Assembly: GCF_024521635.1 (NCBI RefSeq)
Contig: NW_026250449.1
Location: 1-64,000 of the forward strand
Length of the DNA stretch: 64,000 bases
Reading direction: 5' to 3'
Source of the DNA: Tricharina praecox
Lineage: Eukaryota
The notes under the pieces are model-generated. The model was not told the origin of the DNA, did no database searches, and saw only the letters and a program-made list of their open reading frames with translations. Position numbers and translations under genes: made by a program. Positions within the stretch are counted from its first letter, which is position 1; every line of letters begins with the position of its first letter. Below are positions 89-54,743 of this stretch, piece after piece.

Positions 89-136
89 GGTGGTTGGGGA
101 GGAGAGAACGACTGGTGGCGACGCAAAAACTCACCT

Positions 137-2909: not shown

Positions 2910-3038
2910 GGTAGGAGTGGTAGGAGTGGTAGGAGTGGTAGGAGTGGTAGGAGTGGTAGGAGTGGTAGGAGTGGTAGGAGTGGTAGGAGTGGTAGGAGTG
3001 GTAGGAGTGCTAGAAGTGGTAGAAGTGGTAGAAGTGGT
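2910..3038 (+). repeat. 9-bp tandem repeat (GGTAGGAGT)x11 plus about 3 degenerate units
   Basis: Counted directly; lies upstream of the F-box gene. Confidence 0.95.
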
Positions 3039-32825: not shown

Positions 32826-33413
32826 CAGTGTTCTACATAGACTAGACCGGTGCGCCGACCGGACGGGTCGGTCGGGATATATCTCGACCCGACCAGACCT
32901 GATTTTTTTCTGGTCGGGATATACGCCGACCGACCAGACCTAGGCTTTAGTAGGTCGGGATATATCCCGGCCAACCAGACCGTGCCAGGCTTGGTCGGCC
33001 CAGGTCGGCCGACGTCGGGATAACAGAGAAGCTGATCAGCCGCAACATTTTCTGTCATAGTCGTGCGTCCGGAATGTGTCAATGACGACCACAGCAATGC
33101 TGGAAGTGTTGGGCGTCCGAAATGTTACTATAAATGTCGCAGAAATGCTGGCAGACAACAGGAATGCTGGCAGAGGGATGGGATGATTGCGGCGACTCAG
33201 GCGGATTTGAAGGAAATTGGGGAGATGTTGGCTACCCTATGCGAGGACGATCTAGTTTAGATAGGTGATTGGAAAGGGTACAAATTTCAATGTGTATACT
33301 TTCTTAGCCCGACTTATCCCAACCGACCAGACCAAGTTTTTTTTGGTCGGGATATATCCCGACCGACCCGACCATACCCAAATTTGGTCGGGACTGGTCT
33401 ATGTAGAACACTG
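32826..33413 (+). mobile_element. hAT-like MITE family A, 588 bp
   Basis: TIRs cagtgttctacatagac / gtctatgtagaacactg; 8-bp TSD cacccaac/caccccac; empty site at about 30581-30615. Confidence 0.92.
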
Positions 33414-35268: not shown

Positions 35269-37577
35269 CGTTGAGGTGGGCTAAAGGAATGAGTGAATGA
35301 CGGTTGATGAGGTGGAATGGATATGCGCGGGATCCGTCTGGTATTTGTAGCTTTCCGTGAAGCTCCCGGTCTACTAGTAATGACTGCCCAGAGATGCTGC
35401 GATGCTGAGGAGATCGCGCGGTCCATTGTTTCAACTCCACGCCCTGAACCTACCGTTCCATAGCTTTGCCGGAATTCCGTGGACTTCCTCTGGAACAAAC
35501 GGCATCCGTATGCATCGCCAGCATATTCCCCATTCCAACTTCCAACTTCTGGTATGTACCATTACCCCGCCTTAGAAAAAAAACCTAAGCCTCAACCTTG
35601 GCGCGACAGATATATTGCGCGATTACGTCCTACAGGCTACACCTCATCTATTGCACGCTCGATCGATTGCACGCGGGGTACCTGCAGGCTGCAAGGAAAA
35701 ATAAGCCTTTTCGCCCGCCAGCCCGCACCACCGGAGATGGTGCGACATCCGGTGGGCAGGGGCATCTCTCGGTAGCGGGGCCGAGACTAAGACAGAGACC
35801 AGTGGCACTTCGCCGAGGCATAATTATTGCGCTAGCGGTAAGCCGCGGCTGCGGAGGTTCACGTAGAGTGCGGATGACGACTCGCGAGCCAGAGGTCATA
35901 CATATACGGGAAATGAGGCGAATCTGACTCGCCAGTGGATGCGTATCCCGGTGTCCGAGCCGCTGGGATTTATTCCCCGCTGATGGAAAGGGCCCGATAC
36001 CTATCGTATGTACAGTATCTGCCATGATCTATACATAGTAAGGTCGAATGCAATGATGATTAGACGAAGGAAACAAATACTTCCCCGGGTAAATGTTATC
36101 CGGTGATCGGGCAGGGTGGTCTCATCATTCCTGTCTCATCTCATGGGTCACGGTGGAGTCGGGATCCGAACAGGGGTCGACTATCGGGACGGGGATCATC
36201 GGTGATGCATAATCCAACGTCACCGTAACCAACCCAACCATAACCGTAGGGTGGGGGACGAGAGATAGAGAGTGAATCACGCGTACCACGGGTGAAGGGA
36301 TGCAATCATGCAAATATAACAGTAGAGTAGATGACCGGAACGGCGGGAAGGAGCGAGACAGGATGCTACTATCGAGTCACGTTGCTGAGGTTGCGAACGT
36401 GGCCGGCATCCGGAAGAAGCGGAGCAAAGCGAATGAACGTTGCTGACATATGCTATTGCAGTTTATCTGTTTCGCCGCGATGTCATGGCATGTTCCGCAC
36501 TTCCGATTGCGAGGTACATATAGTTACATGCATATCTGCAGGCTCTTCACGGCGATACTATCTACGCCTACTAAACGATTGCAAGTGCGAGTGACGGCGT
36601 TCCTGCAACGCATCATGATGGATCACCGATGAACCCTCCATCACGAAGAACAAGAAACGCTTTCGTTCATCACGACGCAGATGGTATTAAATACAGCCGA
36701 GTGAGCCCGACTCGGCGGAAAGGCGGACGAGAGCCTCTGTCCCGACAGGAAGCCGGTACTTAGCAATAACCTTATCCAAACCCCGGGTTCCGTATTTCCG
36801 ACACGTGCCTCACGAGTCTTTCTCGCTCCCCCGACATGTCACGGGTGATGGCCGGACAGAACGTACTGGAGTCAACTGCAGTTTACTGCCGGACTGCAGG
36901 ACCCCGTTCAGCAAAACCACAAACGGGACGGATTACGCTTTTCCCCTCCAACAGGCGAAGGAGACTGGAATGTTCCGGTCCAGTCCATCCGGACCGAAAT
37001 AAAGTATGTGTTCTAGCCTGCCGGGCAAAATGGGTTTTTTATAAATAGACCGGCCCGCGGGGCAAGCGACTTGTAGAACACCGCACATAGCCAGCCCTAC
37101 TAGGTTACCAAGGGCTTGGTGGCTGTGGCTCGCGGCAGCGATACGCAAAAAAGTAACATGCGTTCACGTAGAATATAAAATTTAGTTTTATCCTACATAC
37201 TGGAGTCCATGGACATAAAGAATCAGAGCTATCGTACGGAACTACCCGCGGCTCCGCGGTTCTCCGGCGTCACCCCAGCAGCCATCACTCGGGATAGCGA
37301 GTGATGCTAGATGCTTCACCGGCAGCGACAAGCGTTAATAACGACTATCAACGGCGATTCAACTTCAGCACCAGAACCGCGTGGGTTATCTAATCTCCAC
37401 GCGAGATCTCTCCTCCTCAACTTCGTCCCCCTCTTTCTCTCCCTCTCTCTCTCTTCTTCCTACAGGTAACACAACGAATCCCACGGTCGACAACCCCCCA
37501 CCGATCAACAAATTACAATTATCTACTACAAACCGTTCGAATCAACAACCTCTACAATTTCCCCAACGCCAGATACA

Positions 37578-37904
37578 ATGGCTACCCCTACCAGCCCCAC
37601 CATCGAGACCGCCAGCCCCGCCTCTGCCTCGAACCACAAGGTCCTCGAGTTCTTCGCTTCACCAGCCGAGCTCGTGGATAGTTTGGTCGGCGTCGCAGCC
37701 GAGGCTGCCGACACCGACGATCGGATGGAGATGGACGTGGAGATTGAGATCGAGAAGGGTATCCAGATCGACATCGAGATGAACATGGAGGTGGAGATGG
37801 GGATGGAGGAGAAGATGGAGGATATGGACGAGGACGAGGACATGGGGGAGGATGAAGACGAGTATGAGGATATAGAGGCGGATTCGAACATGGGCGAGTA
37901 CTAG
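37578..37904 (+). CDS. Acidic Met-rich microprotein, unit 1 (108 aa; family stop would be at 37934)
   Basis: MATPTSPT...NHKVLEFF...LVDSLVGVAAEAAD plus an acidic tail; ACAATGGC start context. Confidence 0.6.
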   Translation: MATPTSPTIETASPASASNHKVLEFFASPAELVDSLVGVAAEAADTDDRMEMDVEIEIEKGIQIDIEMNMEVEMGMEEKMEDMDEDEDMGEDEDEYEDIEADSNMGEY

Positions 37905-38105
37905 GAGGAGGACGAGAATATGGAGGAGGCATAGGCCTGAGGGAGCGTTTTTTTCTCTTTTTTTCTCTCAATATTACCCCAAATACCCCTGTCAAACATA
38001 TCGAATCGGTTACTTGACATGTCTATAAACAGGGCGGTAGGCCTCTATATATACACCTCCGTACGTTGCCGCTAGCGGCCCCTCGTCCGGTGGCGCCGCC
38101 CCGGC

Positions 38106-38260
38106 CAATGTTCTACATAAACCAAACCGGTCGGGCCGACTGGACGGGTCGGTCGGGATATAACCCGACCCGACCAGACCTGATTTTTTTCTGCTCGGGA
38201 TATATCCCGACCGACCAGACCATACCAAATTTGGTCGGGACTGGTCTATGTAGAACACTG
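38106..38260 (+). mobile_element. hAT-like MITE family A, 155-bp deletion derivative
   Basis: TIRs caatgttctacata / tatgtagaacactg; perfect 8-bp TSD gccccggc. Confidence 0.92.
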
Positions 38261-38310
38261 GCCCCGGCGCCCCATCGGGAGCGGCACTACCCAACGGCCA
38301 CATCTCTGAA

Positions 38311-39133
38311 CATGGGGGAGGACGAGGACGAGGACGCGGACATGTAGGTGGGTTCCGGCATGGACGAGGACAGGGAAGAGGATGAGGACATAGAGGACGA
38401 TGCCTGGGTCTTCAGGAGCTGTTATCTTTTTATTTCGTTTTCAAATGTATCGCGAAAACTCCATCCTCGATGATTTTGTATGTTTTCGAGCACGCCACGA
38501 CGCATCTCTAGTGTGCAGAAAGTGCAGAAAGATAAATCAAGGATCCCCACCAGACTCGACTCACAGGATGTTATTCACGCCGTGCATGTATGCCCGCCAC
38601 CGCATAATATGTGTGTGTGCCGATAATATGCCCGGTCACTGTGTGATATGTATTATTCTCGAGGGGCCGGACGTCGTCGCCGAAAAGATGGTGGTTGCGC
38701 GTGGCCAGTGCTGGAAGAGTCAGTAAGAGGTAAACCATCTGTCAAGCCGTCGACGTCTAAAACATCCGCTCGCATCCATTCGTCGCTCTCATTTATTAGT
38801 CATTACATACAGAGGTATCGTAGGGCCGTATCCAGCTCTACTAACCCTTGGCATGTCGTCCGCAACTTGAGGCACCGATACGCCACATGCGTTCGTGTAG
38901 AGGCATATAATGAGTACCTCGATATCTTGGCCTTACTGGCGGAACCATGGGCTAGTTTGGCGAGCGAGAGCGCCGACGCTGCCGCCACCGATGAGGAAAT
39001 GATGAATGGCGAGACGAGCCACATGGGAGGCGGAGAGAAGGGACAGATGATGAAAGTTAAGGCTCACAACAGGGCGGAGAAAATGGAGGAGGACGTGGAC
39101 ATGGAGGAGGGTGAGGAAGAAGATGAGGCCTAG
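38311..39133 (+). pseudogene. Two C-terminal fragments of the microprotein family (units 2 and 3)
   Basis: MGEDEDEDADM*VGSGMDED...EDDA at 38311-38405, and ESADAAATDEEM...EKMEEDVDMEEGEEEDEA* ending at 39133; each is followed by the family 3' block. Confidence 0.65.
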
Positions 39134-39716
39134 TAGGGCGCCGGGAGCAGTTATCTTTTTCTTTCTTTCTTTCAAATTAATCGCGGACTACTACATCCTT
39201 AATGATTTTGTCTTCTTTCGAGCTCGTCTCGATGCACCCCAGTTATGTACCAGATAGTTGTAGGGTCGTAGCTAGCTCTACTCACTATGTACCTACTTGC
39301 AGGCTGTGTGTTCGAGACGGCTTTACACAACATGCGTTGCTGTAGATATGAAACTCTTGGCCTCTGCTTACAAACCTGAAAAGGCTTACACACGGCAGGC
39401 AAGCTGTCGTAACTACCTGCTGCATCGTGGGTCCTAGGGCGGCGCTGCATGCGCATCACTCGCCTCGGGTGACATCTGATGCCGCCACGGTAGCGAAAAG
39501 TTTCAATTACGACTCAACGGCGATTCAGCTTCAGCACCTCGTAAGATTACGCTTCGCTACTACTAAATCTCTCCCCCCCAAATTCTTATCTCTGTCTCTC
39601 TCTCTTTTCTTCCTCCTACAATCCATCCGACGATCAATAACACCAACCGATCAACAATTGTCTACTCCAAACCATCCGAACCAATAACCTCTGCAATTCC
39701 CTCGCCGAGAGAAACC

Positions 39717-40118
39717 ATGGCCACCCCTACCACCCCCACCATGGATACCGCGAGCCCCGCCTCCGCCGACAACGACAAGGCCCTCGAGTTCTTGGCCGGA
39801 CTGGCTGAGCTCATGGATAGTATGGCGAGCGGGAACGGAGCCGAGGCTGCCGACGCCGATGAGCAGATGGACATGGACATGGACATGGAAGTGGCGATGC
39901 AGCTGGACTTTTGGATGGGGATGAAGATGGATACAGATGTGGAGATGGGGATGGAGGAGAAGATGAAGAAGATGGAGGTCACGGCGGACGACGAGGACGA
40001 GGAAATGGGGGAGCAAGAGGACGAGTACGAGGACACTGAGAGGGGCGCGGGCATGGACGAGGATGGGGACATGGAGATGTGTGCGCACATGATGATCAAG
40101 GACATGGAGATAGCATAG
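39717..40118 (+). CDS. Acidic Met-rich microprotein, unit 4 (133 aa, intact)
   Basis: MATPTTPT...NDKALEFLAGLAELMDSM...AEAADADEQMDMDMDME... Confidence 0.7.
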   Translation: MATPTTPTMDTASPASADNDKALEFLAGLAELMDSMASGNGAEAADADEQMDMDMDMEVAMQLDFWMGMKMDTDVEMGMEEKMKKMEVTADDEDEEMGEQEDEYEDTERGAGMDEDGDMEMCAHMMIKDMEIA

Positions 40119-40727
40119 GGCTTCGGGAATTGTTGTCTTTTTTTTTCTTCTTCCAATATTACCATAAATACCCGCATCTTCAATGACTTTTTTTATATCC
40201 TTTCAATCTCGTCAAGAGTGGCGACGCCGCGATAGTTATTTACCAGATACATGTAGTAGTTACCATAGGCTTGTAGCCAGGTATAAATATTGAGATGCCG
40301 ACCGCGGTCCGGCACCGATATGCAACATGCGCTCCTGTAAAAATGGAAATTTTGGTTTCTCCGTGCTGGAGTATTTGTCCGAATGGAGGCTATCGTACTT
40401 ACCCGCTGCTCCGTGCTTCAAAAGACAGAGATCATCAATTTATTTCGCATACCTCCTATCTACTTAGCCACTATGCGCTTTGTTTTTTCTTTTTGTTCTT
40501 TAATTAGGTACACCGCGCTTCTCCGGCAGCGCTTCACAATATATCACTTACAGCGAGTGACATCAAACGCCTCGACGGTGGTAGCGGCAAGGCTCACTAA
40601 CGACTGAACGGCGATTCAGCTCGAGCACCGAGTGATTTGTCTTTTCTGCACGCGAGAGCTCTCCACTCCAACTATCTCTCTCTTCCTCTCTCTCTCTCTC
40701 TCTCTTCTTCCTCCTACACCATCCATC

Positions 40728-40820
40728 CGACGATCAATAACCCTCGACGATCAATAACCCTCGACGATCAATAACCCTCGACGATCTATAACCCCCAACG
40801 ATCAATAACCTAACGATCAT
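40728..40820 (+). repeat. 17-bp tandem repeat CGACGATCAATAACCCT, about 5-6 copies, in a unit leader
   Basis: Directly visible; a similar expansion occurs at about 48590-48670. Confidence 0.9.
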
Positions 40821-40861
40821 CAAATCTCTACTCCAAACCGTCCGAACCAACGACCGTAACA

Positions 40862-41167
40862 ATGGCCACCCCTACGACCCCCACAATGACGACTTTCGCC
40901 TCCACCTCCGCCTCGCCCTGCAACGACAAGGCCCGCGAGTTCCTGGCCGGAATGGCTGACATGATGGATAGTTTGGTCAGCATCGGAGCCGAGGCTGCCG
41001 ACGCTGATGAGATGGACATCGACGTGGACATTGAGATCAATATCAACATGGGGATGGACATGTGGGTGGACGAGAAGATGGATGATATGGAGGTCACCGC
41101 GGAGGACGAGAACGAGGACATGGGGGAGGGCGAGTACCAGGACGGAAACATGGAAGTGGAAGCGTGA
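40862..41167 (+). CDS. Acidic Met-rich microprotein, unit 5 (101 aa; premature TGA, family stop at 41230)
   Basis: MATPTTPT...NDKAREFLAGMADMMDSLV; the frame continues after the TGA to EVMEEA*. Confidence 0.55.
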   Translation: MATPTTPTMTTFASTSASPCNDKAREFLAGMADMMDSLVSIGAEAADADEMDIDVDIEININMGMDMWVDEKMDDMEVTAEDENEDMGEGEYQDGNMEVEA

Positions 41168-41823
41168 ATGGATGGGGACGAGGATATGGAGGTGGATGCG
41201 GACATGGACGAGGTCATGGAAGAGGCATAGGCCGGAGGGAGCTACTTTTGTTACGTTTTCAATATTACCATAAATATCCGCATCTTCAATGACTTTTTTG
41301 TATCCTCTCGATATCATCACCTGTCGCAACGCTGCGACAGGTATTTACGAGATTTACAGTTGTCGTAGGCTCATAGCCAGCCATAGTAGTGACCATAGAT
41401 ATGCGGGCTGCGGATCGAGACAGCGATACGATACATACGCAATACGTATTCCGTAAAATTGGCATTTTTGACTTCCTGTCCTGGAGCACTGGTGCTGAGT
41501 CCAAGCTGTAGTAACTACCTGCTGCATGGATGTGGTTCTCCGAGGGCGCTGCATGCGGCATCACTCGTAGCGAGTGACATCACATGTCTCATCCCAGCTG
41601 CAAGCCTCAATAGCGACTCAACGGCGATTCATCTCTAGTACCGAGTGGGCTTTCGCTTCGCCACCACTAGATTACTCCCTTGCAACTTTAGTTCTCTCTC
41701 TCTCTCCCTCCTACACCATCCATCTGACGATCAATAACCCCCCACCGCCACAACAAAATTACAATTCTCTACTACCAACCATCCAAACCCGCAACCTAGA
41801 CAATTCCCACAACGGCAGACACA

Positions 41824-42177
41824 ATGGCCACCCCTCCCTCCTCCGCCATCCAGACTATCGCCCCCTTCTCCGCCTCCAACGACAAGGCCCTCGATTTCTT
41901 GGCCGAGCTCATGGATAGCTTGGTTGGCGTCGCAGCCAAGGCTGCTGACGAAGATGAGATGGAGTTGGACATGGAGAATGAGATAGGCATGGGTATGGAC
42001 ATCGAAATCGAAATGAACATGGAGATGGGGGTGGGAATGGAGGAGAACATGGAGGATATCCAGGTCAGGTCGGGGGACGAGGACGAGGACATGGGGGAGG
42101 ACAACAACGACGACGAGGACAAGGACATGGAGGAGGAGGAGGTCATGCAGAAGGGCGAGATAATGAATGAGGCATAG
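41824..42177 (+). CDS. Acidic Met-rich microprotein, unit 6 (117 aa, intact)
   Basis: MATPPSS...NDKALDFLAELMDSLVGVAAKAAD... Confidence 0.7.
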   Translation: MATPPSSAIQTIAPFSASNDKALDFLAELMDSLVGVAAKAADEDEMELDMENEIGMGMDIEIEMNMEMGVGMEENMEDIQVRSGDEDEDMGEDNNDDEDKDMEEEEVMQKGEIMNEA

Positions 42178-43188
42178 GCCCGTGGGAGCGTTTTTTTCTC
42201 TTCTTTTTTCAGTATTACCATAAATAACCGTATATTCAATGACGTTTTTGTATCCTTTTGATCTTATGATGAGTCGCAACGCCGTGTCAGTTATGTACCA
42301 CATACATACTAGTTAGTTGTTATCATGGGCTCGTAGTCAGCTCTGCTCTACTCTTGTAGATATCCTATTCTGTCGGCACTCTAGTCTCGGTTCCCCTGCG
42401 CTGGCGGTGTGTGCTTGCGCGGCGGGATATTGGGCAGTGTGGCCGGGATCTGGTGTTCTCTCTCTCTCTTTCTCTCTCTCTCGTTCTCTCGTATTTCATT
42501 CCCATTATCCGCGGGCTACCGCCGCCCCGGCTACGTTCCATTCGATCGGCCTAGTTTAGCCGACTTCAACATCAATCGCGGCGGCGGTGTACACCCCTTC
42601 ACTCTTCCGCCGCCGATAAATAACTCGTGGCGATTGCGATTGCGAGATACATCTTCAGTTTATATCGCATGTAGCCCTTCTAGCCTATGACGGACTGGCA
42701 CTCCTTCCCTGCCCACTCTGGCCGGCCGGGAGTTGAGACCCCGCCACCAGCCAGCACGATGTGGCGACGCTGCATGCCAAACCAAAAACACCATACGGAG
42801 CTGCACCCAGGAGATTTAGGTACCTACGTACTTTTCTTTATTTCTTACTTCCTCGTAACGAGCGCAGACACAGTACTGTACTGCTCCGCGCGTCTCCGGC
42901 GTCACCTCACACTACAGCACTTGATGCGAGTGACATCACATGCCTTTTGGCAGCGACAAGGTTCTATAACGACTGTCAATGGCGATTCAGCTCTAGCTCC
43001 GAGCGTTTTGTCCTTTGGCTACTCGCGATCCCTCCTCCCAAACCCCCCCCCTCTCTCTCTTTCTATCTATCTCTTTTTCTTCCTCCTACAACATCCATCC
43101 GACGATCAATAACCCCCACCATATAACAATTCTGTACTCCAAACCGTCCGAGCCAACACCCTCAACAATAAAATCAGCGAACTACACA

Positions 43189-43534
43189 ATGGCCGGCACC
43201 ATCGCCCTCAGCATCAAGACCGCCAGCCCGGACGCCGCCGACGCCGACAACCAGATGGACGTTGGCATGAAGACGGACATGGACATAGAGATGGGCATGG
43301 AGATGCACATCCGGATGGGGATGAAGATGGATAATCGATATGGAGATGGGGATGGAGGAGAAGATGGAGAAGATGGAGGTCATAGCGGTCGACGAGGACG
43401 AGGACATGGGGGAAGAAGAGGACGAGTACGAGGTCATGGACGAGGGCGAGGCCATGGAGGAGGGTGTGGGCATAGACGAGGGCGAGGCCATGGAGGAGAG
43501 TGTGGGCATGGACGAGGAGATGAAAGAGGTATAG
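43189..43534 (+). pseudogene. Microprotein unit 7, core helix deleted and frameshifted
   Basis: MAGTIALSIKTASP joins directly to DAADADNQMD; frameshift near 43335 before MEMGMEEKME. Confidence 0.65.
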
Positions 43535-43651
43535 GCCTCAGGGAGCATTTTTCTTTTTCAATATTACCATAAATACCCGCATTTTCAACGAAATTTTTGT
43601 ATCCATTCGATCTCGTCAGGAGTTGCGACGCCGCGGCAGTTATGCAGCAAA

Positions 43652-44190
43652 CAGGGCTGTCAACCGTCCGTCCGGACTACAGTCCACTAGTGGACTATAG
43701 TCCCATCCCGTCCCGGGCAGGCTATCCAGAGAACTGATCCATTCCGCCCGGAGGATGGAATGCCTGGATACCCGCCAGGTACCTATAAGTACCTAATAGC
43801 ACTAGCGTGCTATGCTGACTACTAGTTTGCGAAGTAGTATGACCACCAACAGAATTTTCAGACTCGAGCAGAATTTTCAACGTCGTCAAACAATCGACCT
43901 CAGAGGATAGAAACTGCTGTTAGTAGGAATAGGGATGACGTGAAAGTTCTGTACCGTGAGAGACACTTCGAAATGGAGCCGCACAGCCACACATCCCCAC
44001 ACCGGCGCCACTGTGTAGCGCCACGCCGCTTGCATTGTCCTAGTGTTCCAGTCAATTCCGGGCCCTGTAGGGTATCCGTCCTCATTTCTCCAACCCGGAA
44101 GACTGTAGTCCCCGGTCTCCTTAGCCCGACTAATTCCGTCCCGGGCCGGGCAACCTCAAACACGGACGGGACGGACGGTTTACAGCCCTG
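43652..44190. mobile_element. hAT-like MITE family C (no TSD)
   Basis: 22-bp TIR cagggctgtcaaccgtccgtcc / ggacggacggtttacagccctg with 1 mismatch. Confidence 0.85.
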
Positions 44191-44721
44191 CGGCCGATGC
44201 GAGGAAGTTGGTGAGGAGGATAAGCAGTGATTGGGTGTGGAGCGGAAGCAGAACACAGTGGAGAGACGCCACCGGGGCTTTCACCTTGACTGGCCAGGGC
44301 GGGCAGGAAACGGAGTTCGTGGGTTCGCCATAGTCTAGATACGCGGCATGCGGAATAAAACAGAAAGATCTCACTCTCGATCACAACCAGCAGTTTCGAC
44401 CCACGACGAATTCGCGCCGGATAGTCAAGCCCCCAGCCACGACTGCCTAGAACTACAAGCAATCACGAAGAACGGCACGGTTTTTTTACTTTTTTACTTT
44501 TTTTCTGGATTTCTATTTAAAAAAAAAGATGACAGACATTACACCCTTCCATAGTCTCCTTGTCCCACCATTGGAAAACCTGGATCCGCCGGTCACTAGG
44601 AAAAGGTATGGACTCAATTGCAACTACACTCGAGCCTGGAAAATACTCGAGGCAGAGGGGAAGGGGGGAAAGGAATTATCGAGGAAGCAACGTAGAAACA
44701 AAAGGAAAATGAGGACCTACC

Positions 44722-46530
44722 TTACAAGGAGGCCATATAGACCTCCTCGAGCCGCTGTCTGACCTCTTGCAGCCACACACGCCCCTCTTCCAGCGTTGCC
44801 AACATGTACACCTCCGCCTAGTGTCGCAGTTGCTCCAGCTGCTGCCATCGCTGCTCGCAGAGCCAGATGAAAGACACCCCACCCATACGAAGCAACTCAG
44901 GCTGCTGCTGAGCCCACAAGACCAACCTCTGGTACGTCTCCAGCAGGCCGGCCTCGCTCTGCGTGTTGGCCACAGCTAGTGCCTCTGACAGGTAGTCGTA
45001 TTGAAAAGAGACAATACGCTCGTACTCACGCTCATGGAGCTGGTACTCCTGCAGAAGTTGCTGCCGCAGCGTCATCAGAGGGGCGCTGCTAGGTTCCGGC
45101 TGCTGTTGCGACTGCCGCTGCAGCTCTTCGTACCGTCGCAGCGCTTGGACCTGCCGCTCCCCGTAGATCATCAGACCCGTCTCGAACTGCTGCTGTTGCT
45201 CGGTCTGGGTGAGGAACGTCGGAGGCGCGGACGAGATCACTTGCTCAGGTACCGGTGACTGTTCCCTCTGAGATTGAGCCTTCAGCGGCTGTGGCTGGAC
45301 GGGGGTAGAGGCTGGCCCGGGAGCAGAAGTAATCGGCGCAAATTGCACCTAAGCCTGGGCCAGAGCTTCGGCCTTCGCTTGCGCGATAGCGTCAGCTGTT
45401 GCCCGCTTCTTTGCCAGAAGCCGGGCCTTCTTCTGCTCCGCCTGGACTCTGGCTTGCGCCCGAGCCTGAGCGTCAGCATTTGCTTTCGCAATTCCCTCAG
45501 CTGTGGCGTTTGCCAGCCTCTGCTCGTCCGCATCACGGGCAGGTTCCCGAGCTTTGGCATCCGCTTATGCTTGGGCTTGGGCAGAAGCCCTCGCCTTTGC
45601 ATCAGCTTCCGCCTGAGCTCGATCACGAGCCTCAGCTTCCACCTATGCCTACTTCTGGCGGGCCACCTTATCAGCCTGTGCGCGAGCACGAGCCTCAGTG
45701 GCCGCCTGAGCCTTGGCTGCCGCCTCTTTCTGGAGGTCCATTTCACGGGCCCATGCCCGAGCCTTGGCCTCTGCTTCTGCTTGGGCTTGGGCAACAGCCT
45801 TCGCCCGCACATCCGCTTCCGCCTGTGCCCTAGCACGATTGGTCTCAATTTCCTCCATTGCCTGACGCTGGAGCTCAGCATCACGAGCCCGCGCTTGAGC
45901 CTGAGCATCCGTTTCCACCAGAGCTTGGCCAAAAGGCCCTGCCCTCGCATCCGCTTCCACCTGCTGCCTAGCACGAGCCTCAGCATCGGCCCTGCCCATG
46001 ATCACCGCTTCCGCGAAGTTTCTTGGCTTGGACCTTGGATTGATCTCCCAAGTCAAGATCTGTCTGAAGGCTCCGAGGACTTTCGTCTTCGTCGGCTTCG
46101 ACAGATCCGTCCGCGTATCGGCCATCTTCTTCATCTGCCGAATCTCATCTGCTAGCAGTGCGACAGCCACAGTGTTCCCCTTCTTCCAACAATCTTGGGC
46201 GGCCACCACGAGCTCTTCAGCCCGCTTTACCAGGCCCCTGTCGCGCAATTCGGTCAAGGCCGGAGGTGGGGAAAACCCAGAGACCGGCCGACGCGAATTC
46301 TCCGCGTGCGGTAACTTGGCGCCGTCTGGATCCTCGGTCGCCCGTCTCTTCGACCCGGTGCTAGCACCAGGGTGGACGGCGTGACCGGGACCAGGAACGG
46401 ACGCAGGTGTTGCTGGGGGGGCAGAGGGGGGAGGAGGAAGAGGAGGGGCTGGGTGTTGACTTGCCGTCCGGGACGTCCACTTTGCGGGTGGATCCCCTTC
46501 AGGTTCGTCCGTCGCAGTTCTTTTGAACAT
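44722..46530 (-). pseudogene. Ala/Gln/Arg-rich coiled-coil repeat protein, about 600 codons, five in-frame stops and no frameshift
   Basis: ORFs 45649-46530 and 44818-45348 share a frame; reading through gives ARQK*A*VEAE...AQAQA*ADAK...LAQA*VQF...LRH*AEVY...YMASL*. Confidence 0.75.
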
Positions 46531-47558
46531 GGTGGGGGTGGGGGAAATGTGTGGAAAAGTGAAGATTGTAGATGGTGGGGGGGGGGAAAGTGGTCAAATG
46601 GGTGTGCGATGTAGAGAAAAAAAGAAGAGGAGAGGAGGGGTGGGGATGGGGCTTTTTATAGTTGAATCTGCTATCGGCGAAAACCTGTTTTCGACCTCAA
46701 CTAGCCGTTGCAGCCCTTCATGTGCTGTCACTCGACACCTGAAAAACTATTTGGCCGACAGTCAGATGACTGAGGCCACGTGGAGCAAGATCTCCATGCC
46801 CTAGAGAGGTAGTAAGAAATGCATCAATGTTCACATTGATGGCAGCAATATTCTCCCGCTATTTGTGGACAGTATCATGATAATGCCTGCCGTGGCTGGA
46901 GGCACCGATACGCAACATGTCAAACTTTGGATCGGCGGCCAAGCTTAGGCGGCGCCTCAGTTTTGAAGTGAGGTCTCGCCGCGGATGATATTACGTTCTT
47001 CTTTTTCTCGGTATCAAATAAGGTATCTCCTCCTGTCTACCGAGATCATCCAACGCAACATGCGCTCCTGTAGAAATGGAATTCTTGATATCTCCGTAAT
47101 GGAGCATTTGTACCGAATGGCGGCTATCGTACCTACCCGCTGCTCGGTGCTTCAAAAAGTAAAGATCATCCATTTATCTCGCATACAGCCTAACTCCTTA
47201 GCCACTATCCGCCACTTTTTTTTTCTTCTTCTTTCATTGGGTGCTCCGCGCTTTTCCGGCAACGCTTCATAATGCATCAGTCAATGCGAGTGACATCACA
47301 TGCCTCGCCATAGCGACCAGCGTCAATAACGACTCTCAACGGTGATTCATCTTCGACACATGGTGAGCTTTTGCTTCACCGCCACTAGACTTCTCCTCCC
47401 CAGCTTCCTCTCTCTCTTTCTCCCTTTCTCTCTCTCCTCCTCCTCCTACAGCATCCATCCGACTTTCAATAACCCCCCACCGCAACAACACAATTACAAT
47501 TATCTACTACCAACCATCCAAACACACAACCTCCACATTTCACCAAACGCCAGACACA

Positions 47559-47951
47559 ATGGCCACCGCTACCACCACTACCACCCACACCATCAAGACT
47601 TTCGCCTAGGCCTATCCCTCCAACAACAAGGCCGTCGATATCTTCGCCGAGCTCATGGATACCTTGGTTGGCGTCGGAGTCAAGGCTGCCGACGCAGACG
47701 AGATGGAAATTGACGTGGAAGTTGAGATTTATATGGGAATGGTGATGGAGATTGATATGAACATGGAGATGGTGATGCGGATGGACGAGAAAATGGAGGA
47801 TATGCTGGTCAAGGCGGAGGACGAGGACGAGGACATGGCGGAGGATGAAGAAGAGGACGAGGATATGGTCGCGGGTGCGACTATCGACGAGGATGAGGAC
47901 ATGGATGAGGGTGATGATATGCACGAGGGCGAGATCATGGATGAGGTATAG
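47559..47951 (+). pseudogene. Microprotein unit 8 with in-frame TAG at 47607-47609
   Basis: MATATTTTTHTIKTFA*AYPSNNKAVDIFAELMDTLVGVGVKAAD...; otherwise a full 131-codon frame. Confidence 0.7.
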
Positions 47952-48727
47952 GCCTGAGGGAGCGTTTTTTTCTCTTCTTTCTCAATATCACGATAAATAC
48001 CCGCATCTTCAACAATTTGTTTTGTATCCATTCGATCTCGTCACGAGTCGCGACGCCCCGCCAGTTATCTGTCAGATACATACTAGTGTTATCGTGGGCT
48101 CGTAGCCAGCTTTAATCTACTCTATATATCCTGATTCCTGGCTGGTCGGATCTCGAGTCTCGGTTGGATCTCCAGTGCGAGCGAGCGAGCGAGCGTGCGT
48201 GCGTGCGTGGGGGAGCCCGTCGCGCCTGGCGCGACAGGCGTGTAGAATACGAGGTACTTACAAAGTAGTTATTGTAGCGCCGCATGCTTTCCCGTAAAAA
48301 TTGAAATAGAACTTTTGGTTTCTCCAATATATAGGAAGGTATGAACATACGGAATCCAAGCTGCCGTACAGAACTACCCACTGCTCCGCGCTTCTCCGGC
48401 GGTGCTTCACAATGCATCACTCCAGTCGAGTGACATCACAAGCTCCTTCGCCGCGACAAGCCTCACTAACGACTTTCAACGGCGATTCAGCACCAGCACC
48501 GATTGATTTGTCTTTTTTCTAAGCCCGATCTCTCTTCCCCAACTTCCTCCCTCCCTCCCTCTCTCCTCTTCCTCCTACATCGTCCATTGCACGATAAATA
48601 CCCCCGACGATCAATATCCCCCAACGATCGATAACCGCCAACGATCAACAACCCCCGACGATCAACAATTCTGTATCTCAAACCTTCCAAACCCACCACC
48701 TCTGCATTACAATCCGCGACCGAAACA

Positions 48728-49138
48728 ATGGCCACCCCTAACAACACTACCATTCCCACCGTCAAGACTTTCGCCTCCGCCTCTGCCTCGCCCTCCAACC
48801 ACAAGGCCCGCGAGTACCTGGCTGGACTGGCCGACATGACGGATAGTTTGGTCGGCGTCGGAGGAGAGGCTGCCGATGCCGACGATTGGATGGAAATCGA
48901 CCTGGAGATCGAGATGGCCGTAGGTATGGAAATTGACATCGCGATGGATATGGAGATACAGATGGGGAGGGAGGAGAAGATGGCGGATATGCAGGTCACG
49001 GCGGACGGCGAGGACGAGGATATGCGGGAGGACGACAACGGCGACGAAGACGAGAACATGGAGGTAGTTGCGGGAATCAACGAGGATGAGGACATGGAGG
49101 TGGATGCGGGCATGGATGAGGTCATGGAGGAGGCATAG
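48728..49138 (+). CDS. Acidic Met-rich microprotein, unit 9 (136 aa, intact)
   Basis: MATPNNTT...NHKAREYLAGLADMTDSLVGVGGEAAD... Confidence 0.7.
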   Translation: MATPNNTTIPTVKTFASASASPSNHKAREYLAGLADMTDSLVGVGGEAADADDWMEIDLEIEMAVGMEIDIAMDMEIQMGREEKMADMQVTADGEDEDMREDDNGDEDENMEVVAGINEDEDMEVDAGMDEVMEEA

Positions 49139-49751
49139 GCCGGATGGAGCCACTGTATGTTACTTTTTCAATATTACCATAAATGTCCGCATCTTCAATG
49201 ACTTTTTTTTTTCCTTTCGAGCTCGGCGCACTGGCCGCGAAAGTTATGTAAAATAACAGATCCTTACGAATTAGTTATTGTAGGCTCGTAACTAGCTCTA
49301 CTAACGATCGACTGATCGGCAGCGGCTGGAGGCACCGATAGGTGCGCAACATGCGTTCCAGGTGAAGAATATATAGAACCTCTGCTTTCTCCGAACATAC
49401 ACGAAACTATGTACATACGGGACCCAAGAGACGTACAGAACTGCCCGCTGCTCCGCGCTTCTCTGGCAGCGCTCCACGATAGATCACTCCGCCCGAGTGA
49501 CCTCACATGCCCCCACGGTGGCAGCAGCTAGTGTGAATAACCATTTTCACTGGCGATTCAGCTTCAGCACCGGGTGGACTTTCGCTTCGCCGCCACTAGA
49601 CTTCGGCTCCCCAACTTCTTTCCTCTCTCTCTTTCTTCTTCCTCCTTCACCATCCACCAGAAGATCGATAACCCTCCACCGCCACAAAATAATTCTCTAC
49701 TCCAAACCGTCACAACCCACACCCTCAATAATACAATCAGCGAACTACACA

Positions 49752-50111
49752 ATGGCCAACATCACAGCCCCCACAACCAAGACTTTGGCCTCCGCCTCCG
49801 CTGCCAAAGACAAGGCCTTCGATTTCTTGGCCGTGCTCATGGATAGCTTGGTTGGCGTCGCAGCCGAAGCTGCCGACCCTGACGAGATGGAGTTGGACAA
49901 GGAGACTGGCATCAATATGGAGATGGGGATGGAGATGCGGATGCAACAGAAGATGGAGGATATGCAGGTCGCTGCGGTGGAGGAGGACGAGGACATAGGG
50001 GAGGATGAAGACGAGGACGAGGATATGGAGCTCGGTGCCCGCGTGGACGAGAATCAGGATATGGCGGTGGGTGAGTACATGCAGGATGGCGAGGACATGG
50101 AGATGGTCTAG
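49752..50111 (+). CDS. Acidic Met-rich microprotein, unit 10 (119 aa, intact)
   Basis: MANITAPTT...KDKAFDFLAVLMDSLVGVAAEAAD...; CACAATGGC start context. Confidence 0.7.
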   Translation: MANITAPTTKTLASASAAKDKAFDFLAVLMDSLVGVAAEAADPDEMELDKETGINMEMGMEMRMQQKMEDMQVAAVEEDEDIGEDEDEDEDMELGARVDENQDMAVGEYMQDGEDMEMV

Positions 50112-50856
50112 GGCTTCGGGAGTCGTGATCTTCTCTTCTCTCTTACAATAACATTACCATAACTGTAATCTCAATGACTTTCTTTGTATGCTTTCGATCT
50201 CGTCACCAGTCGCGACGCCGCGACAGTTATGTACCGGTACATTTACTACCTGTGTAGTAATCCCATGCTCGTAGCCAGCTCTACTCTAATCTGGATATCC
50301 TAGATATCCGGTCGGAACTAGACCGTCGAGTCCCGGTTCCCCAGTGCGTGAGTGCGTGTGCGAATTTTACGCCGTGCGATTGGGATCCGCTGATCTCTCT
50401 CTCGTATTTCGTTCCCATAGTTCGCTGACTACCGCCATCGCGGCTGCGTTCCGTTCGATCGGCTCCACTCCAGCCGCTTTCAACCGCACATCCCACCACC
50501 TCCGCCGCCGACCAATGACTCCTGGAGCAAGCCGGTTCCCCGCCGGCCAACGAGATCGAGAGAAAGCGAGTGATATTCCCGGAGTTACACTGTTATAAAT
50601 CGCAATAAGCGCCATACAGGTAACAGCTTCATGTTCCGATTACAGCTATACTACCCAGCCCAACGAGGTAGCCAGCCACTGCAGCCTATATACTAAACGC
50701 ACGGACAACCGGTTCGTATATACAGTCTCCCGCCAGCGCAAAACTGGGCAGCGCAAGAATAACAACCGATGGGAAACTATCCATTGTACAAAAAACGATC
50801 CACCCAATTGCCCACCGACGCACCACCGGAATCGGTAGTGGTCGCTGCCTACCAAG

Positions 50857-52320
50857 CTACGTGCCGCCTGTCTCCGGTTTCCGGCCGATGACGTGCCACC
50901 TGTGTCGTACGGTTAGTCTACGCGTAGTAGTTTGGTGATGCGGATGGGGGCGGGGGCGGGGGAGGATGCATACATAACCTGATAAGCGTGAACCTTCCTA
51001 CTCTCGACATCCGCCTGGGCGTTCTTGCACATGTTCATGACCGTATCCGCGCTGAGGCCCAAGAAGCGGGTCATTGGCGCCATTCCGTAGGACTCAAAGC
51101 CGGTTGCACTGTTGAGCGCACCAATGAAGCCGGCCCGTTTCATCTGCGGGTTTTTCGGCCAGCCGCCCCATGGCTGTTTAAACTGTTTTACCTGGAGACA
51201 CGGGATGTGTCAGCTCGGTGGATAGGTAGCCACGGGGGTGGCTGGTGCAAGCTTACGGTGACGTCGACGAACCCCGCCTCCTCGACCATACGCTTCAGCC
51301 CGTCGCCGGTCGGCTGCATCAAGTTCGCGATCGAGATCGCCTTGACGAAGTTCGTCATGTACGTTTCCAGCGCCGAGCCTTTGTACGAGTCGTCGTCGCA
51401 GTACGTGTGCGTGCCTATCTCGGCTAGCTCGACGTATCCGCCTCGCTTGGTATGACTGGCGCGCACCCGGTCAGCAGGGGGGGGGGGGGGGGGAGGGGGG
51501 GGGGGTGGAAGTGACGACGAACAGGTACATCTGCTCAAGATATTTCCGCCAGTCCCGGATGCTCTGCGCGACGTTGCGCGAGTGGATGAGGTCGAAGTAA
51601 TCCTGTTGGAGTTAGTCAGTCGGTTGTCGGGGGCGTGATTGGCAGCACGCTGCTGCGGTCATGTGTAGTAAATACCTTGCGGAAGGTCCACTCCCCCTCG
51701 AGATCGTCGACTTCGAACCGGACGTTGGGTACCACCCACTCGGGCTGGATGGGGCTCAGATCCACACCGACAACTTCCGCCATTGGGAAGAACTCTCCGG
51801 CATCCAGCGCCCAGATACCCGTGCCGGTGCCGCAGTCGAGGATGTGCTGGGGATTGTCGCCGATGGGCGCCACGAAGAGCGAGCCCTTGAGCAAGAGCAG
51901 CTGCAGATGGTGGTACATATCGAGACTTCACCAGCACAGATTTAGCTGTGCACTACTGACGACGGGGCGCCAACGCACTGGGGGTACCGACCGGTCTTGC
52001 TCCGTCTCGTCGTTGGGCAGCAGGTACTTGCCCTCCTGCAAGCGGTGGTAACGGCGGCCATTCTCGTAGACGTAGTCGACTATGGACGAGGTTATGCTGT
52101 GTGTGGAACTCTCGCTACGGTGCGTGTCAGTCGTCGGATTGTGCGGCTCTGGAGTTAGGTGAGAACGTACAGGGTGGAGGAGTAGTCCGAAGACGAGAAT
52201 TCCGGATCGGTGTCGACTTCCAACTAGACACCGTCAGCGCCACGGACAGCACGGGTACCTCACGTTCGCGACAGGTGGACATACCGGTAGGTGATCGGCG
52301 ACGTCTGCTGCTGCTGCCAT
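50857..52320 (-). CDS. LaeA-like SAM-dependent methyltransferase (multi-exon)
   Basis: YVYENGRRYH...YLLPNDETEQDR; ILDCGTGTGIWA; GVDLSPIQP; FEVDDLE; GGYVEL; PWGGWPK; final exon HVIGRKPE. Confidence 0.92.
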
Positions 52321-53166
52321 ATTTGAGAGAGGTGGTGGAGGTTTGGCGGATTGTAGGGTGGGGGGAGGGAGGGCTTCGGGTATCCGGCGGCTAACAAGGG
52401 ATAGAGACCGATAAGTGAGGACAGAGATGAACGGCACGGCGGCAACAGCGTACTTATATATATATCGGGGGGGGGGGTGGGGGGGGGGGGGGGGGGTAAG
52501 CGCAGCCTACCTTCCTGGGAGGGATGCGCAGGACTACGCCAATTCCGATCCACGACGGTGCCGTGTCGTGCAGCATGCAGCATTGATAGTGGTTCCCGGC
52601 TTGGCGGTCCAGATACCGGGGCAGCGCCACACACCTGCATATGACGGCGATGGGGGCGTGGAACAGACTTTTTGGAGCGTCCTCCGCGTGTCCCCGTGGT
52701 ACTCTATATACAGGCCAGCCGTTTCGGTGCGTGTCTCGACCGAATGCCTTTGTCTCCAGTCCACAGTCTTCCCAGATCGGCGTGAGCTGGAGTAAAAGCA
52801 ACTGTCTTGGTGACTGCACGTATGGGGACCAGTGCAGCAGAGAAATTCCGGCTGCAGTGCTGGTAGCGGGTGAATTTTCGCATCGGATGTTCTGCCGCGG
52901 TTTTCAGGCAGTGCCTCACACAACATCACTCGCAACGAGTGATGAAATATGCCTCGACGCCGGCGACAAGGCTCAATAACGACTAGACGGCAATTGAGTT
53001 CCTGGCATCGCATGATCTTCACACCCCCCTTTGTCTCTCTGTCTTTCCGTGTTTTTCTTCTTAATCACCACCGCCAAACGCTCCAGACACTAAGTAAACA
53101 CCACACCGAGAATGAAAAAAGCGAAAACCACCACTGCGAGTCTACGGCAATTGTCACAATCTCAAA

Positions 53167-53323
53167 GAAGGCTATTGCTTCCATTCCTACCACCTCCACC
53201 CCCACGCCCACACCCACTACCGGCAATAACGCCACCCTTGAGGCAAGCAGAAGCTCCCTCGACATCTTTGATTTCTTGGCCGAGTTGAAGACCTGCTTCA
53301 ACTCTCGAGGACGACGAAGATGA
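53167..53323 (+). pseudogene. Highly degenerate microprotein unit 11
   Basis: Upstream element at 52926 is intact; Thr/Pro-rich stretch then IFDFLAEL; no ATG at the expected position. Confidence 0.45.
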
Positions 53324-53854
53324 CGTCGCGTCAACGAGGACCAACAGGAGGACAACTGTGTAAATATATTACCATGATTTATTTGGGTCGCAAGCAATTA
53401 CTGATTAAACAAAAAACGTATGATCCGTGGGCTGTGAGCGATAAAGTGCTACATAGTGGAACGGACTGCACAGTGCACCGTGCGCATGGACGGCGCAGTG
53501 CGGCCGAAAGAAGCTTAACGTAGGTAGGCGGTTGACCCTTGCTCGGCAGTGACCACATCACTCCATACCGGTACTTCGGTACGGTCTTCCCCGCGGATCG
53601 GCGTACACTGGAGAGCGGTCGGTAGATACATCATACATCATAATTCTTTACCCAACTCAATCTTATCCTTGCCACGTGGGTGCCACACGGCGGTGACGGG
53701 ATGAACAGATACCAAGATCCTCATGCAGCACAGCGTAGTAAACGTAGGTACTGCACCCGTCGGAAATCTTTTCATCCACCCCGTTCTTCTAGACGTTCGT
53801 TCCCAGCACTGCGCAGTCTTCAGTCTCCCTACTAGATACCACGCTTCTCAGCTA

Positions 53855-54241
53855 CAGGCCTGGTAATCGTCCGTCCCGTCCGTCCGAGGCTGTGCCCCGG
53901 GCGAGACGGAATTTGTCGGGCCCGGAATGTCAAGGACTATAGGTCTCCGGGCAAGCCGGAGGACGACCGGGCCCCATTCGGGCCCGGAAACTCTGGCGCT
54001 AGTACTAGCCTTGGGCAGTGGTGTAGTGGCGCAGCAAACAGGAATGAAGCCAAGGAGTTGGCAGCACGGCGAGAATTAAGGAGTTGGCAATGGGTACTCC
54101 CGTATGCGATCTGATGCAACATTTTCACCTGCCAAAGTTTTCCAGATAGCCGGCACCGTACACTCAGTAGCCGGCTGCTTCCGCACTAACAATTTCCGGG
54201 CCCCAATAGTCTTCCGTCCGGACGGACTATTCCCAGGCTTG
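53855..54241 (+). mobile_element. hAT-like MITE family B, 387 bp
   Basis: Imperfect TIRs caggcctggtaatcgtccgtcc / ggacggactattcccaggcttg; perfect 8-bp TSD ctcagcta. Confidence 0.9.
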
Positions 54242-54743
54242 CTCAGCTATGCGGTGACCGGTGCGAACCAGCGCTACATACCAACGCCAGCGGCTCGCTA
54301 AGTGGTTCGCCAGCGAGGTGTTAACTAGGACAAACCCTATGTCGATGCTCCACCGTGCAGAAGCGAAGCAACGACTCCGAGGCGCGGCGCGGCCCTGAAT
54401 GAGGATTGGCAGATGGGGGCTAGGGCTGCGTACTAGCAGTGGGCATGGCCGTGGATAGGGACTACTACCATACGCCACGGGGCGTGCCGAAGAATTTTCG
54501 GCGAAGGAATGTTTGATTTCGTCGAGCAACGAGCACCGAGTGACGTCAATGATCGATCTCTCTCTCTCTCGCGCGCACATGCGCTGTGACAAAATAAATG
54601 CCATCTCTAAACGGAAATCGCAAGGTCACATCGAGCTGAATCCAACCGCCCGAAAGCTCCCCTTTTATTCCCTCACTCCTTGCGTAAATATGTTCCACCG
54701 AACAAAAAATGCAGACAACAACCAGTTTTCCATCCATAGCATA

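Follow-up and report, generated by a model that had tools for sequence, protein, structure and literature searches.

A conserved inverted repeat upstream of an orphan tandem gene family in Tricharina praecox, a candidate protein-binding promoter element

The window analysed here is a stretch of 64,000 nucleotides from the post-fire cup fungus Tricharina praecox (assembly GCF_024521635.1, contig NW_026250449.1, positions 1 to 64,000 of the forward strand), in which a family of related open reading frames (ORFs) spans positions 37578 to 50111 on the plus strand, each ORF lying downstream of a conserved upstream module. With the units numbered U0 to U9 after their modules, the family ORFs are those of U1 (37578-37904), U2 (39717-40118), U3 (40862-41167), U4 (41824-42177), U5 (43189-43572, frameshifted and carrying a deletion), U6 (from 47559, with a stop after codon 16), U7 (48728-49138) and U8 (49752-50111). 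The encoded proteins are 101-136 amino acids long, acidic and rich in Met, Glu and Asp, and neither a Pfam family nor homologues were found for them. Judged from these data, the genes appear to form a species-specific, orphan, tandem family. Between U5 and U6 the array holds a non-family gene on the minus strand (44818-46530), which matches a 464-aa gene model named as a hypothetical protein of T. praecox. No description of the gene family, of the motif considered below or of a factor binding it was found in the literature and databases searched.

Each module is about 125 bp long and contains an inverted repeat (dyad) of the type TCACTCG-N3-CGAGTGA. The modules of the array, all on the plus strand, are those of U1 (37249-37373, dyad 37285-37304), in which the spacer is 6 bp and the arms can be extended to 9 bp; U2 (39419-39538, dyad 39456-39472), the sole copy with an altered right arm (CGGGTGA); U3 (40508-40630, dyad 40544-40560), with two mismatches in the left arm; U4 (41529-41643, dyad 41561-41577), which is perfect; U5 (42881-43001, dyad 42917-42933) and U6 (47240-47359, dyad 47277-47293), both with two left-arm mismatches; and U7 (48381-48501, dyad 48417-48433) and U8 (49447-49572, dyad 49484-49500), with one each. 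Two dispersed modules have perfect dyads: U0 on the minus strand (136-257, dyad 206-222, TCACTCG-CCT-CGAGTGA), which past its CT tract continues into different sequence and then the window end, and U9 on the plus strand (52889-53009, dyad 52926-52942, arms extendable to 9 bp), where the ORF, which no longer has the family ATG, is cut short at 53323 and the downstream boxes show decay. A dead copy on the minus strand (3765-4017), in which an insertion of about 150 bp splits the module and the dyad is degenerate, precedes a piece of the family coding sequence and 3' region (3757-3390). The motif thus outlives the decay of the ORF, as had been proposed, the module being present at three decayed ORFs (U5, U6 and U9).

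When the pattern was scanned over the window with up to three mismatches allowed and compared with 100 shuffles, 13 matches were found against 3.16 +/- 1.79 expected, a number reached by none of the shuffles. Nine of the 13 are copies listed in the original prediction, the remaining four (4600, 33509, 41632 and 42621) are at chance level, and the tenth listed copy, at 37285 with its 6-bp spacer, was established by reading the sequence. An nhmmer search with a 134-column profile of the module returns exactly ten full copies in the window (E 7e-33 to 1e-28) and, in addition, the dead copy as two minus-strand pieces (4017-3960 and 3813-3765), so that all ten listed dyads, from 206 on the minus strand and from 37285 to 52926, are real. 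All ten copies go back to a single ancestral promoter, and the excess of the scan over shuffles therefore reflects paralogy and does not amount to ten independent events. Since the chance that one 7+7 palindrome appears in an ancestor of 134 bp is about 0.09, not an improbable event, the informative test is retention of the dyad since duplication, which it passes.

Within the module, a CCGCG..TCTCCGG box is followed by (A)TCACT(CG)-N3-CGAGTGA and then by CATCACATGCC, AGCGACAAG, AATAACGAC and CAACGGCGATTCAGC, 3' of which come a pyrimidine (CT) tract, a leader of about 110-170 nt and ACAATGGCC. The right arm is exact in nine of the ten modules and the left arm in five, with one mismatch in two and two mismatches in three, which agrees with the earlier description of the left arm as the more variable; the counts given for the spacer, 3 bp in nine copies and 6 bp in one, also stand, and its columns are free, being changed in 5-6 of the 10 copies. 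The TGACATCA box, said to overlap the dyad in most copies, is exact in 6/10, has one mismatch in 2/10 and is lost in 2/10 (U1 and U9). Among the other boxes, GCGACAAG is exact in five modules, AATAACGACT in three and AACGGCGATTCAGC in three (nine with up to two mismatches). A 16-mer, CGAGTGACATCACATG, that includes the right arm occurs with at most three mismatches in 8/10 modules, and CACATG follows CATCAC in five (U0, U4, U5, U6 and U8), outside the best-conserved windows. All ten full modules have the same orientation relative to their downstream unit, and in 8/8 complete units the start of the dyad lies 261-318 bp upstream of the ATG, on the strand of the ORF, where about 250-310 bp had been noted earlier; the family stop codon that precedes it lies, by the coordinates, at a variable distance of 346 to 1552 bp.

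The module copies are old, given a mean dS of 0.45 (15 pairs among six intact family ORFs), a unit-wide mean pairwise identity of 0.666 and a near star-shaped tree with a total length of 3.13 substitutions per site. Over this time the dyad has been the best-preserved non-coding sequence upstream of the family genes, contrary to what would be seen if it were no better conserved than neighbouring spacer DNA. CGAGTGA is changed in 1 of 70 cells and ranks first among 292 upstream 7-column windows, and only 0.13% of 20,000 column shuffles yield a window as conserved (P=0.0013); about 21.9 substitutions would be expected there and one is seen, with a Poisson probability of 7e-9, or 2e-6 after multiplication by 292, on the presumption of equal rates across sites. 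In the left arm, changes affect 8 of 70 cells (P(<=8)=6e-4 by the same test; rank 19 of 292); the split dyad as a whole, with 9 of 140, ranks first of 282 (P=0.00065 by shuffling). The inner CG is invariant in the right arm only and its left-arm counterpart varies. CATCACT, a word overlapping the left arm, ranks third for conservation among the upstream windows (4/70 cells changed). The CATCACATGCC columns are of moderate conservation (0.708).

It is quite improbable that the dyad is itself functionless, conserved only by shared descent or by homogenisation between repeats. Such a view would draw on the paralogy of every copy, on the possible chance origin of the ancestral palindrome and on the conservation of the module taken as a whole, which does not exceed that of its surroundings, at a pairwise identity of 66-79% against 67-80% for the coding sequence and 61-81% for the leader. 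However, the column-shuffle probabilities of both right arm and dyad, the one and eight changed cells in arms for which about 22 substitutions each are expected, and a spacer that varies freely between them all speak against it, as does the loss of the dyad in the dead copy. This copy matches the consensus at only 40 of 58 otherwise conserved columns, compared with 25 of 46 variable ones, which speaks against a mutational cold spot. Moreover, conservation is packed into short blocks with free positions between them, and blocks so short would be hard to explain by gene conversion.

A covariation test had been proposed for the alternative that the dyad works as RNA, folding into a hairpin within an upstream non-coding transcript or a long 5' leader. 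In 8/10 copies the MFE or the centroid structure includes the hairpin, with z-scores down to -5.4, and all three one-sided stem changes that preserve pairing are G.U-compatible on the plus strand. However, in none of the seven pairs have both bases changed, unpaired cells number 6 of 70 and the covariation score equals that of shuffles, so that no compensatory stem change was found. The structure does not form in U5 and U6 despite an intact rest of the module, its stability spreads from -4.8 to -15.7 kcal/mol, and the inner CG of the right arm is invariant while its pairing partner varies. The position of the CT tract, a fungal core-promoter feature, downstream of the dyad also counts against a role in RNA. 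A search of positions 36500-54000 against Rfam (E<=1) gave no match at the dyad, its sole match being an unrelated, sub-threshold mir-341 at 38131-38231, and no tRNA or tmRNA was found. An RNA role is thus improbable.

The other suggested alternative, in which the dyad would be a site for recombination or mobility and would delimit the repeat unit or move it, is contradicted by the extent of the repeats and is the least probable of all. The dyad is palindromic, it occurs in dispersed copies (U0 and U9) besides the array, and U0 is chimeric, its downstream part being unlike the family units. However, homology between units reaches 45 bp or more past the dyad on its upstream side in 10/10 copies, and farther in subgroups, and also about 900 bp downstream, while the junction in U0 lies after the CT tract and not at the dyad. 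At their 3' ends the units show no partner dyad in the unit alignment, and the module profile has no match there. Because the dyad lies inside the repeat unit, reading it as a recombination site is unsupported.

A protein-binding element is the best-supported reading of the dyad because it combines top-ranking upstream conservation with a free spacer and with an orientation and a distance relative to the ATG that are both fixed. On these sequence grounds, the dyad is probably the core of a cis-regulatory module of about 125 bp, a predicted protein-binding promoter element. A single ancestral gene unit would have been duplicated, in tandem as well as to dispersed positions, and would have passed on the module, which purifying selection would have kept since then. 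A sequence-specific DNA-binding protein, probably a dimer or two inverted protomers, would contact the outer half-sites TCACT and AGTGA, which lie about one helical turn apart, leaving the 3-bp centre unread, and could either activate or repress. The right arm may also belong to an asymmetric site that overlaps the dyad, CGAGTGACATCAC(ATG), and would be able to stand alone, and the dyad, this site and the other boxes would together drive transcription starting at or past the CT tract. CT tracts precede transcription start sites and are typical of core promoters in filamentous fungi, and on this rule rests the placement of the dyad in the promoter; its location 5' of the CT tract is suggestive of a position upstream of the transcription start. 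The persistence of the module at the units with decayed ORFs was counted against the promoter-element reading.

The dimeric factor of the original prediction is plausible, although the asymmetry of the arms (1/70 against 8/70 cells changed) and the 6-bp spacer of U1, which a rigid dimer should not tolerate, speak against it. The same features allow for a possible, if doubtful, account in which the functional unit is not the palindrome but the asymmetric composite CGAGTGACATCAC(ATG), made up of the right arm, the CRE-like TGACATCA and the E-box-like CACATG (the bHLH E-box being CANNTG), with the left arm as a weaker auxiliary half-site or a relic. Besides the stronger right arm and the spacer of U1, this account can point to the 16-mer, found in most modules and once alone without a left arm, and to CGAGTGAC, of which there are seven occurrences outside the modules where 2.36 +/- 1.25 would be expected. 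It is at odds with U1 and U9, which are without CATCAC and yet have perfect dyads with extended arms, with the high rank of CATCACT over the left arm and with the only moderate conservation of the CATCACATGCC columns.

Comparison with known systems places the module among the phylogenetic footprints of the promoters of paralogous families, from which it does not differ in kind. As in other tandemly duplicated families, short invariant blocks alternate with free positions in copies that are about 67% identical, their distance and orientation to the start codon are fixed, and conservation exceeds that of neighbouring non-coding DNA. AflR, a fungal Zn2Cys6 regulator, binds TCG-N5-CGA sites in the promoters of the aflatoxin/sterigmatocystin clusters. 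The dyad resembles these sites in its inverted TCG...CGA core and in occurring once per promoter, a few hundred bp from the ATG, across physically clustered genes. In contrast to AflR sites, its spacer is 3 bp (6 bp in one copy) and not 5 bp, its left TCG is intact in just 5/10 copies and its right CGA in 9/10, its best-conserved bases are the outer TCACT/AGTGA, outside TCG-N5-CGA, and the promoters are paralogous and not independent. Among 94 ORF translations scanned in the window there was no match to Zn_clus or Fungal_trans, nor to any DNA-binding-domain family. An AflR-type Zn2Cys6 palindrome was rejected on account of the spacer, of triplets that are not both conserved and of the lack of a linked regulator in the window. 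The CRE/ATF bZIP site is the palindromic octamer TGACGTCA, of which TGACATCA is a variant that overlaps the right arm in 6/10 modules. However, the canonical octamer is found in 0/10 modules, for which reason a canonical CRE/ATF bZIP site was rejected; the TGACATCA box is also less conserved than the right arm and is lost in U1 and U9, where the dyad stays perfect. Elsewhere in the window there is a single perfect CGAGTGACGTCA, at 54537.

The dyad, a real element but one of an ordinary kind, is therefore most likely a docking site for a transcription factor. Shared binding sites are to be expected in paralogous promoters, and the finding has no bearing on a long-standing open question. It does offer a precise candidate operator (17 bp plus the overlapping 16-mer) for an orphan, locus-restricted family of a little-studied Pezizomycete, and a clean case of promoter blocks outlasting coding sequence in a young tandem family.

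The original prediction went further in proposing that the site defines a regulon. The binding site itself is the best-supported part of this claim, whereas a regulon beyond the gene family is weakly indicated: all ten full copies belong to one paralogous family, so that co-regulation beyond it rests on a single 16-mer noticed post hoc. This 16-mer, CGAGTGACAGCACATG (46719-46734, minus strand), differs by one mismatch from that of the modules and sits in the TATA-containing promoter of the non-homologous gene inside the array, 189-204 bp upstream of its ATG (46530) and about 65 bp upstream of TATAAAAAG. It has no left arm and its flanks are non-homologous to the module. The chance of a 16-mer with at most one mismatch in the window is about 0.0015, and its local-alignment score of 27-29 is inside the range of shuffles (maxima 27-34). 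It is conceivable, if rather unlikely, that the right-arm word, as full dyad or as 16-mer CGAGTGACATCACATG, is a candidate operator of a lineage-specific regulator that jointly switches on a locus-restricted island of orphan genes, made up of the acidic-protein array and the embedded unrelated orphan gene. If so, selection would be stronger on the promoter than on the proteins, for which omega is about 0.63 and three of whose units keep the module above a decayed ORF, and the array might matter as regulated transcription units or binding sites and not through any one protein.

When up to three mismatches are allowed, TCACTCG-N3-CGAGTGA finds 13 matches in the window, where 3.16 ± 1.79 are expected; nine are copies listed in the original prediction and the four others correspond to the chance expectation. 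The tenth copy, at 37285, has a 6-bp spacer instead of the 3 bp of the other nine. A 134-column profile of the upstream module that has this dyad as its core recovers exactly ten full copies in the window (E 7e-33 to 1e-28), U0 at 136-257 on the minus strand and U1 to U9 within 37249-53009 on the plus strand, together with one decayed copy at 4017-3765 (minus strand) that an insertion has split. Pattern matches and module profile thus bear out the ten copies claimed. The unequal upkeep described for the two arms holds as well, the right arm being exact in 9/10 copies and the left arm in only 5/10. In all eight complete units the dyad lies 261-318 bp before the ATG, in keeping with the 250-310 bp proposed, and it persists, as had been noticed, in units with a decayed ORF (U5, U6 and U9). 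The overlap with TGACATCA reported for most copies is found, exact in six of the ten, and the three boxes said to follow the dyad are present, exact in only three to five of the ten.

A complete unit comprises about 950 alignable bp, in which a CCGCG..TCTCCGG box is followed by the dyad, by CATCACATGCC, AGCGACAAG, AATAACGAC and CAACGGCGATTCAGC, by a CT-rich tract, by a leader with CGACGATCAATAACCC, by ACAATGGCC with the ORF (101-136 aa) and by a conserved 3' region of about 180 nt. In U3 and U7, CGACGATCAATAACCC occurs as a 17-bp tandem repeat. This leader repeat, CGACGATCAATAACCCT-like, reaches four to five copies only at 40706-40825 (U3) and 48566-48685 (U7), with one copy in the other units, and has TCAATAAC in common with the module box AATAACGAC. 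About 90 nt past the stop, the 3' regions contain a conserved palindrome (e.g., 41310-41355 and 50196-50249), which reads GTCGCG-ACGC-CGCGAC in U8 and CCTGTCGCA-ACGC-TGCGACAGG in U3; one apparently compensatory pair differs between the two, the stem is broken in other units, and the palindrome may possibly form a 3'-end hairpin. In U0 the family leader is missing after the CT tract, its place being taken by another repeated sequence (1-140, minus strand), which recurs with 80-85% identity over 40-64 nt at 42457-42520 (after U4) and 50394-50433 (after U8). U0 would thus seem to be a chimera whose junction falls in the CT tract, and its downstream gene is interrupted by the start of the window.

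The proteins of the family are very acidic and rich in Met, Glu and Asp, with a conserved N-terminal half and stretches in which hydrophobic and acidic residues alternate (e.g., MEMDVEIEIE). Three units carry decayed ORFs, through a deletion and a frameshift in U5, a stop after codon 16 in U6, and loss of the ATG and truncation in U9, and family fragments lacking the module occur at 38310-38503, 38915-39258 and 29504-29630. No Pfam family matches the family ORFs, and a word-index protein search returned the window's own U1 as sole match. Exhaustive HMMER comparison with 1.84 billion representatives retrieved only U1, U3 and one bacterial-type polyketide synthase; this last match sits in acyl-carrier linker repeats and was rejected as a homologue, being judged compositional. 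The only credible matches in these two very large searches are the window's own proteins. No usable feature match for the family came from the ESM Atlas, whose model is of low confidence (pLDDT 0.53).

Because the ten copies are paralogues, copy number alone is no proof, and the useful question is what has been retained since duplication; the chance that the ancestral 134-bp module contained a single 7+7 palindrome is about 0.09. The module copies are old, as is evident from a mean dS of 0.45 (15 pairs among the six intact ORFs; mean omega 0.63), from a mean pairwise identity of 0.666 across the unit and from a near-star tree of the upstream region with a total length of 3.13 substitutions per site. 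RIP was considered as the cause of this divergence and rejected, since its signature is absent (transition/transversion ratio 0.88). Over its whole length the module is no better conserved (66-79% pairwise identity) than the CDS (67-80%) or the leader (61-81%), and conservation within it is concentrated in short blocks. In a test on 298 upstream columns of the ten copies with 20,000 column shuffles, CGAGTGA was the best of 292 seven-column windows, with 1/70 cells changed, a value equalled in 0.13% of the shuffles; the next best were GGCGATT (2/70) and CATCACT (4/70). The left arm as written has 8/70 cells changed (rank 19 of 292). With 9/140 changed, the split 7+3+7 dyad ranks first of 282 (P=0.00065), and the three spacer columns differ in five to six of the ten copies. 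Given the tree length, each arm should have accumulated about 21.9 substitutions, and the Poisson probability is 7e-9 for at most one in the right arm (2e-6 after multiplication by 292) and 6e-4 for at most eight in the left arm. The motif, and above all its right arm, is consequently better conserved than the neighbouring DNA, contrary to the outcome that the original prediction had named as refuting it. In the decayed copy the dyad is degenerate, and the consensus is kept at 40 of 58 otherwise conserved versus 25 of 46 variable columns, which supports selection over a mutational cold spot, though from one copy only, whose alignment is ambiguous. We conclude that the dyad is a genuine cis-element kept by selection.

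The ALTERNATIVES tested for the dyad were an RNA hairpin and a recombination or mobility site, both raised in the original prediction. As a hairpin, 64 of 70 stem cells pair, and the structure folds in eight of the ten copies, U5 and U6 being the exceptions, with energies from -4.8 to -15.7 kcal/mol. The covariation test gives it no support: none of the seven stem pairs shows a two-sided change, six cells are unpaired, and three are one-sided wobble changes. No Rfam family matches the dyad region. The right arm is kept even where its pairing partner has changed, and in this it resembles a DNA word read by a protein rather than a stem. Nor does the dyad behave as a recombination or mobility site, since it lies inside the unit, with homology continuing through it to either side; the chimeric U0 changes sequence past the CT tract and not at the dyad.

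With anatomy and conservation observed, we consider a protein-binding promoter element, with moderate confidence, the most likely reading of the dyad, and we infer binding, dimer geometry and transcription start alike. Inverted TCACT/AGTGA half-sites would lie on either side of an unread centre and overlap an asymmetric CGAGTGACATCAC site, and together with the other boxes they may act upstream of a TATA-less core promoter with a CT tract. CT tracts have a role in fungal promoters. No regulator gene was found near the array among the 94 ORF translations scanned in the window, which comprise 17 plus 77 from a set of 222 stop-to-stop ORFs of at least 95 aa, the remainder being mostly overlapping or antisense frames.

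The proposal that the dyad defines a regulon fares less well, as every one of the ten full copies comes from a single family and the sole hint outside it is the 16-mer CGAGTGACATCACATG. With up to three mismatches this word occurs nine times (0.54 expected), in eight modules and, with one mismatch, at 46719-46734 (minus strand). About 65 bp downstream of the latter site is TATAAAAAG, and 189-204 bp downstream is the annotated ATG of a gene embedded in the array (44818-46530, minus strand). This gene, non-homologous to the family, matches at 100% identity a 464-aa model named hypothetical protein of Tricharina praecox. The chance of CGAGTGACATCACATG at one mismatch or fewer is about 0.0015; however, the word was picked post hoc, and the score of the pairwise alignment (27-29) falls inside the shuffle range (maxima 27-34). 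Homology of the embedded gene's promoter with the module was rejected, as their alignment is limited to the 16-17-mer. CGAGTGAC occurs seven times outside the modules (2.36 ± 1.25 expected), with no clear promoter context seen at 11395, 27547, 27949, 33881, 36588 and 54537, the site at 46727 being the exception. At 54537-54548 (plus strand), CGAGTGACGTCA fuses the right-arm word to a perfect CRE octamer and is directly followed by a (CT)n tract; no plus-strand gene could be assigned downstream of it. At 11395-11417 (plus strand), CGAGTGAC is followed 5 bp on by GGTGATGTCAC, the reverse complement of GTGACATCAC, and about 110 bp downstream lies a short ORF whose translation may resemble the C-terminal portion of an acyl-CoA-binding protein. 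In U1 and U9 the CATCAC box is missing, yet their dyads are perfect and can be extended to 9 bp, so that all copies are explained neither by the palindrome alone nor by the 16-mer alone; the right arm is their common denominator.

By type, the dyad module belongs with the phylogenetic footprints of paralogous promoters, and it adds a further example to a well-known class. Cluster-wide Zn2Cys6 palindromes, such as that of AflR with the consensus TCG-N5-CGA, are similar, but the dyad departs from this consensus in spacing and in conservation of the left triplet. The likeness to the CRE consensus is that of a one-base variant only, and this module box is lost in two copies. A literature search found nothing on TGACATCA with Aspergillus promoters; among the matches listed, those for TCACTCG/CGAGTGA binding sites had unrelated titles and abstracts, and those for the Tricharina praecox genome included none whose title or abstract dealt with the family or the motif.

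The window, which covers 64,000 bp of a contig 121,505 bp long, is fungal, with genes for NACHT/ankyrin NLR proteins, tyrosyl-DNA phosphodiesterase, a cutinase and a Methyltransf_23 protein. Three or four NACHT/ankyrin NLR paralogues are seen (4988-8647, 12893-14575, 16043-19623 and 59781-64000). A tyrosyl-DNA phosphodiesterase fragment at 9874-10410 (minus strand; Pfam E 2e-23), about 10 kb from an apparently complete gene at 20723-22843 (plus strand), is probably a pseudogene copy. A decayed family unit and its 3' flank, which includes an ORF starting MPRSSGAVIFLLRF / MPGSSGAVIFLFRF, recur in inverted orientation about 35 kb apart (2700-4050, minus strand, and 38310-38726, plus strand), which points to a segmental duplication. 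The microsatellite (GGTAGGAGT)n, with a 9-bp unit, extends over 2874-3076 and translates as (TPT)n on the minus strand, and one related copy lies at 30982-31042. Finally, a short, MITE-like element built on the palindrome GGTCGGGATATATCCCGACC is found at 24718-24875, 32902-32977, 33335-33410 and 38182-38257, one of its copies standing directly after the U1 ORF.
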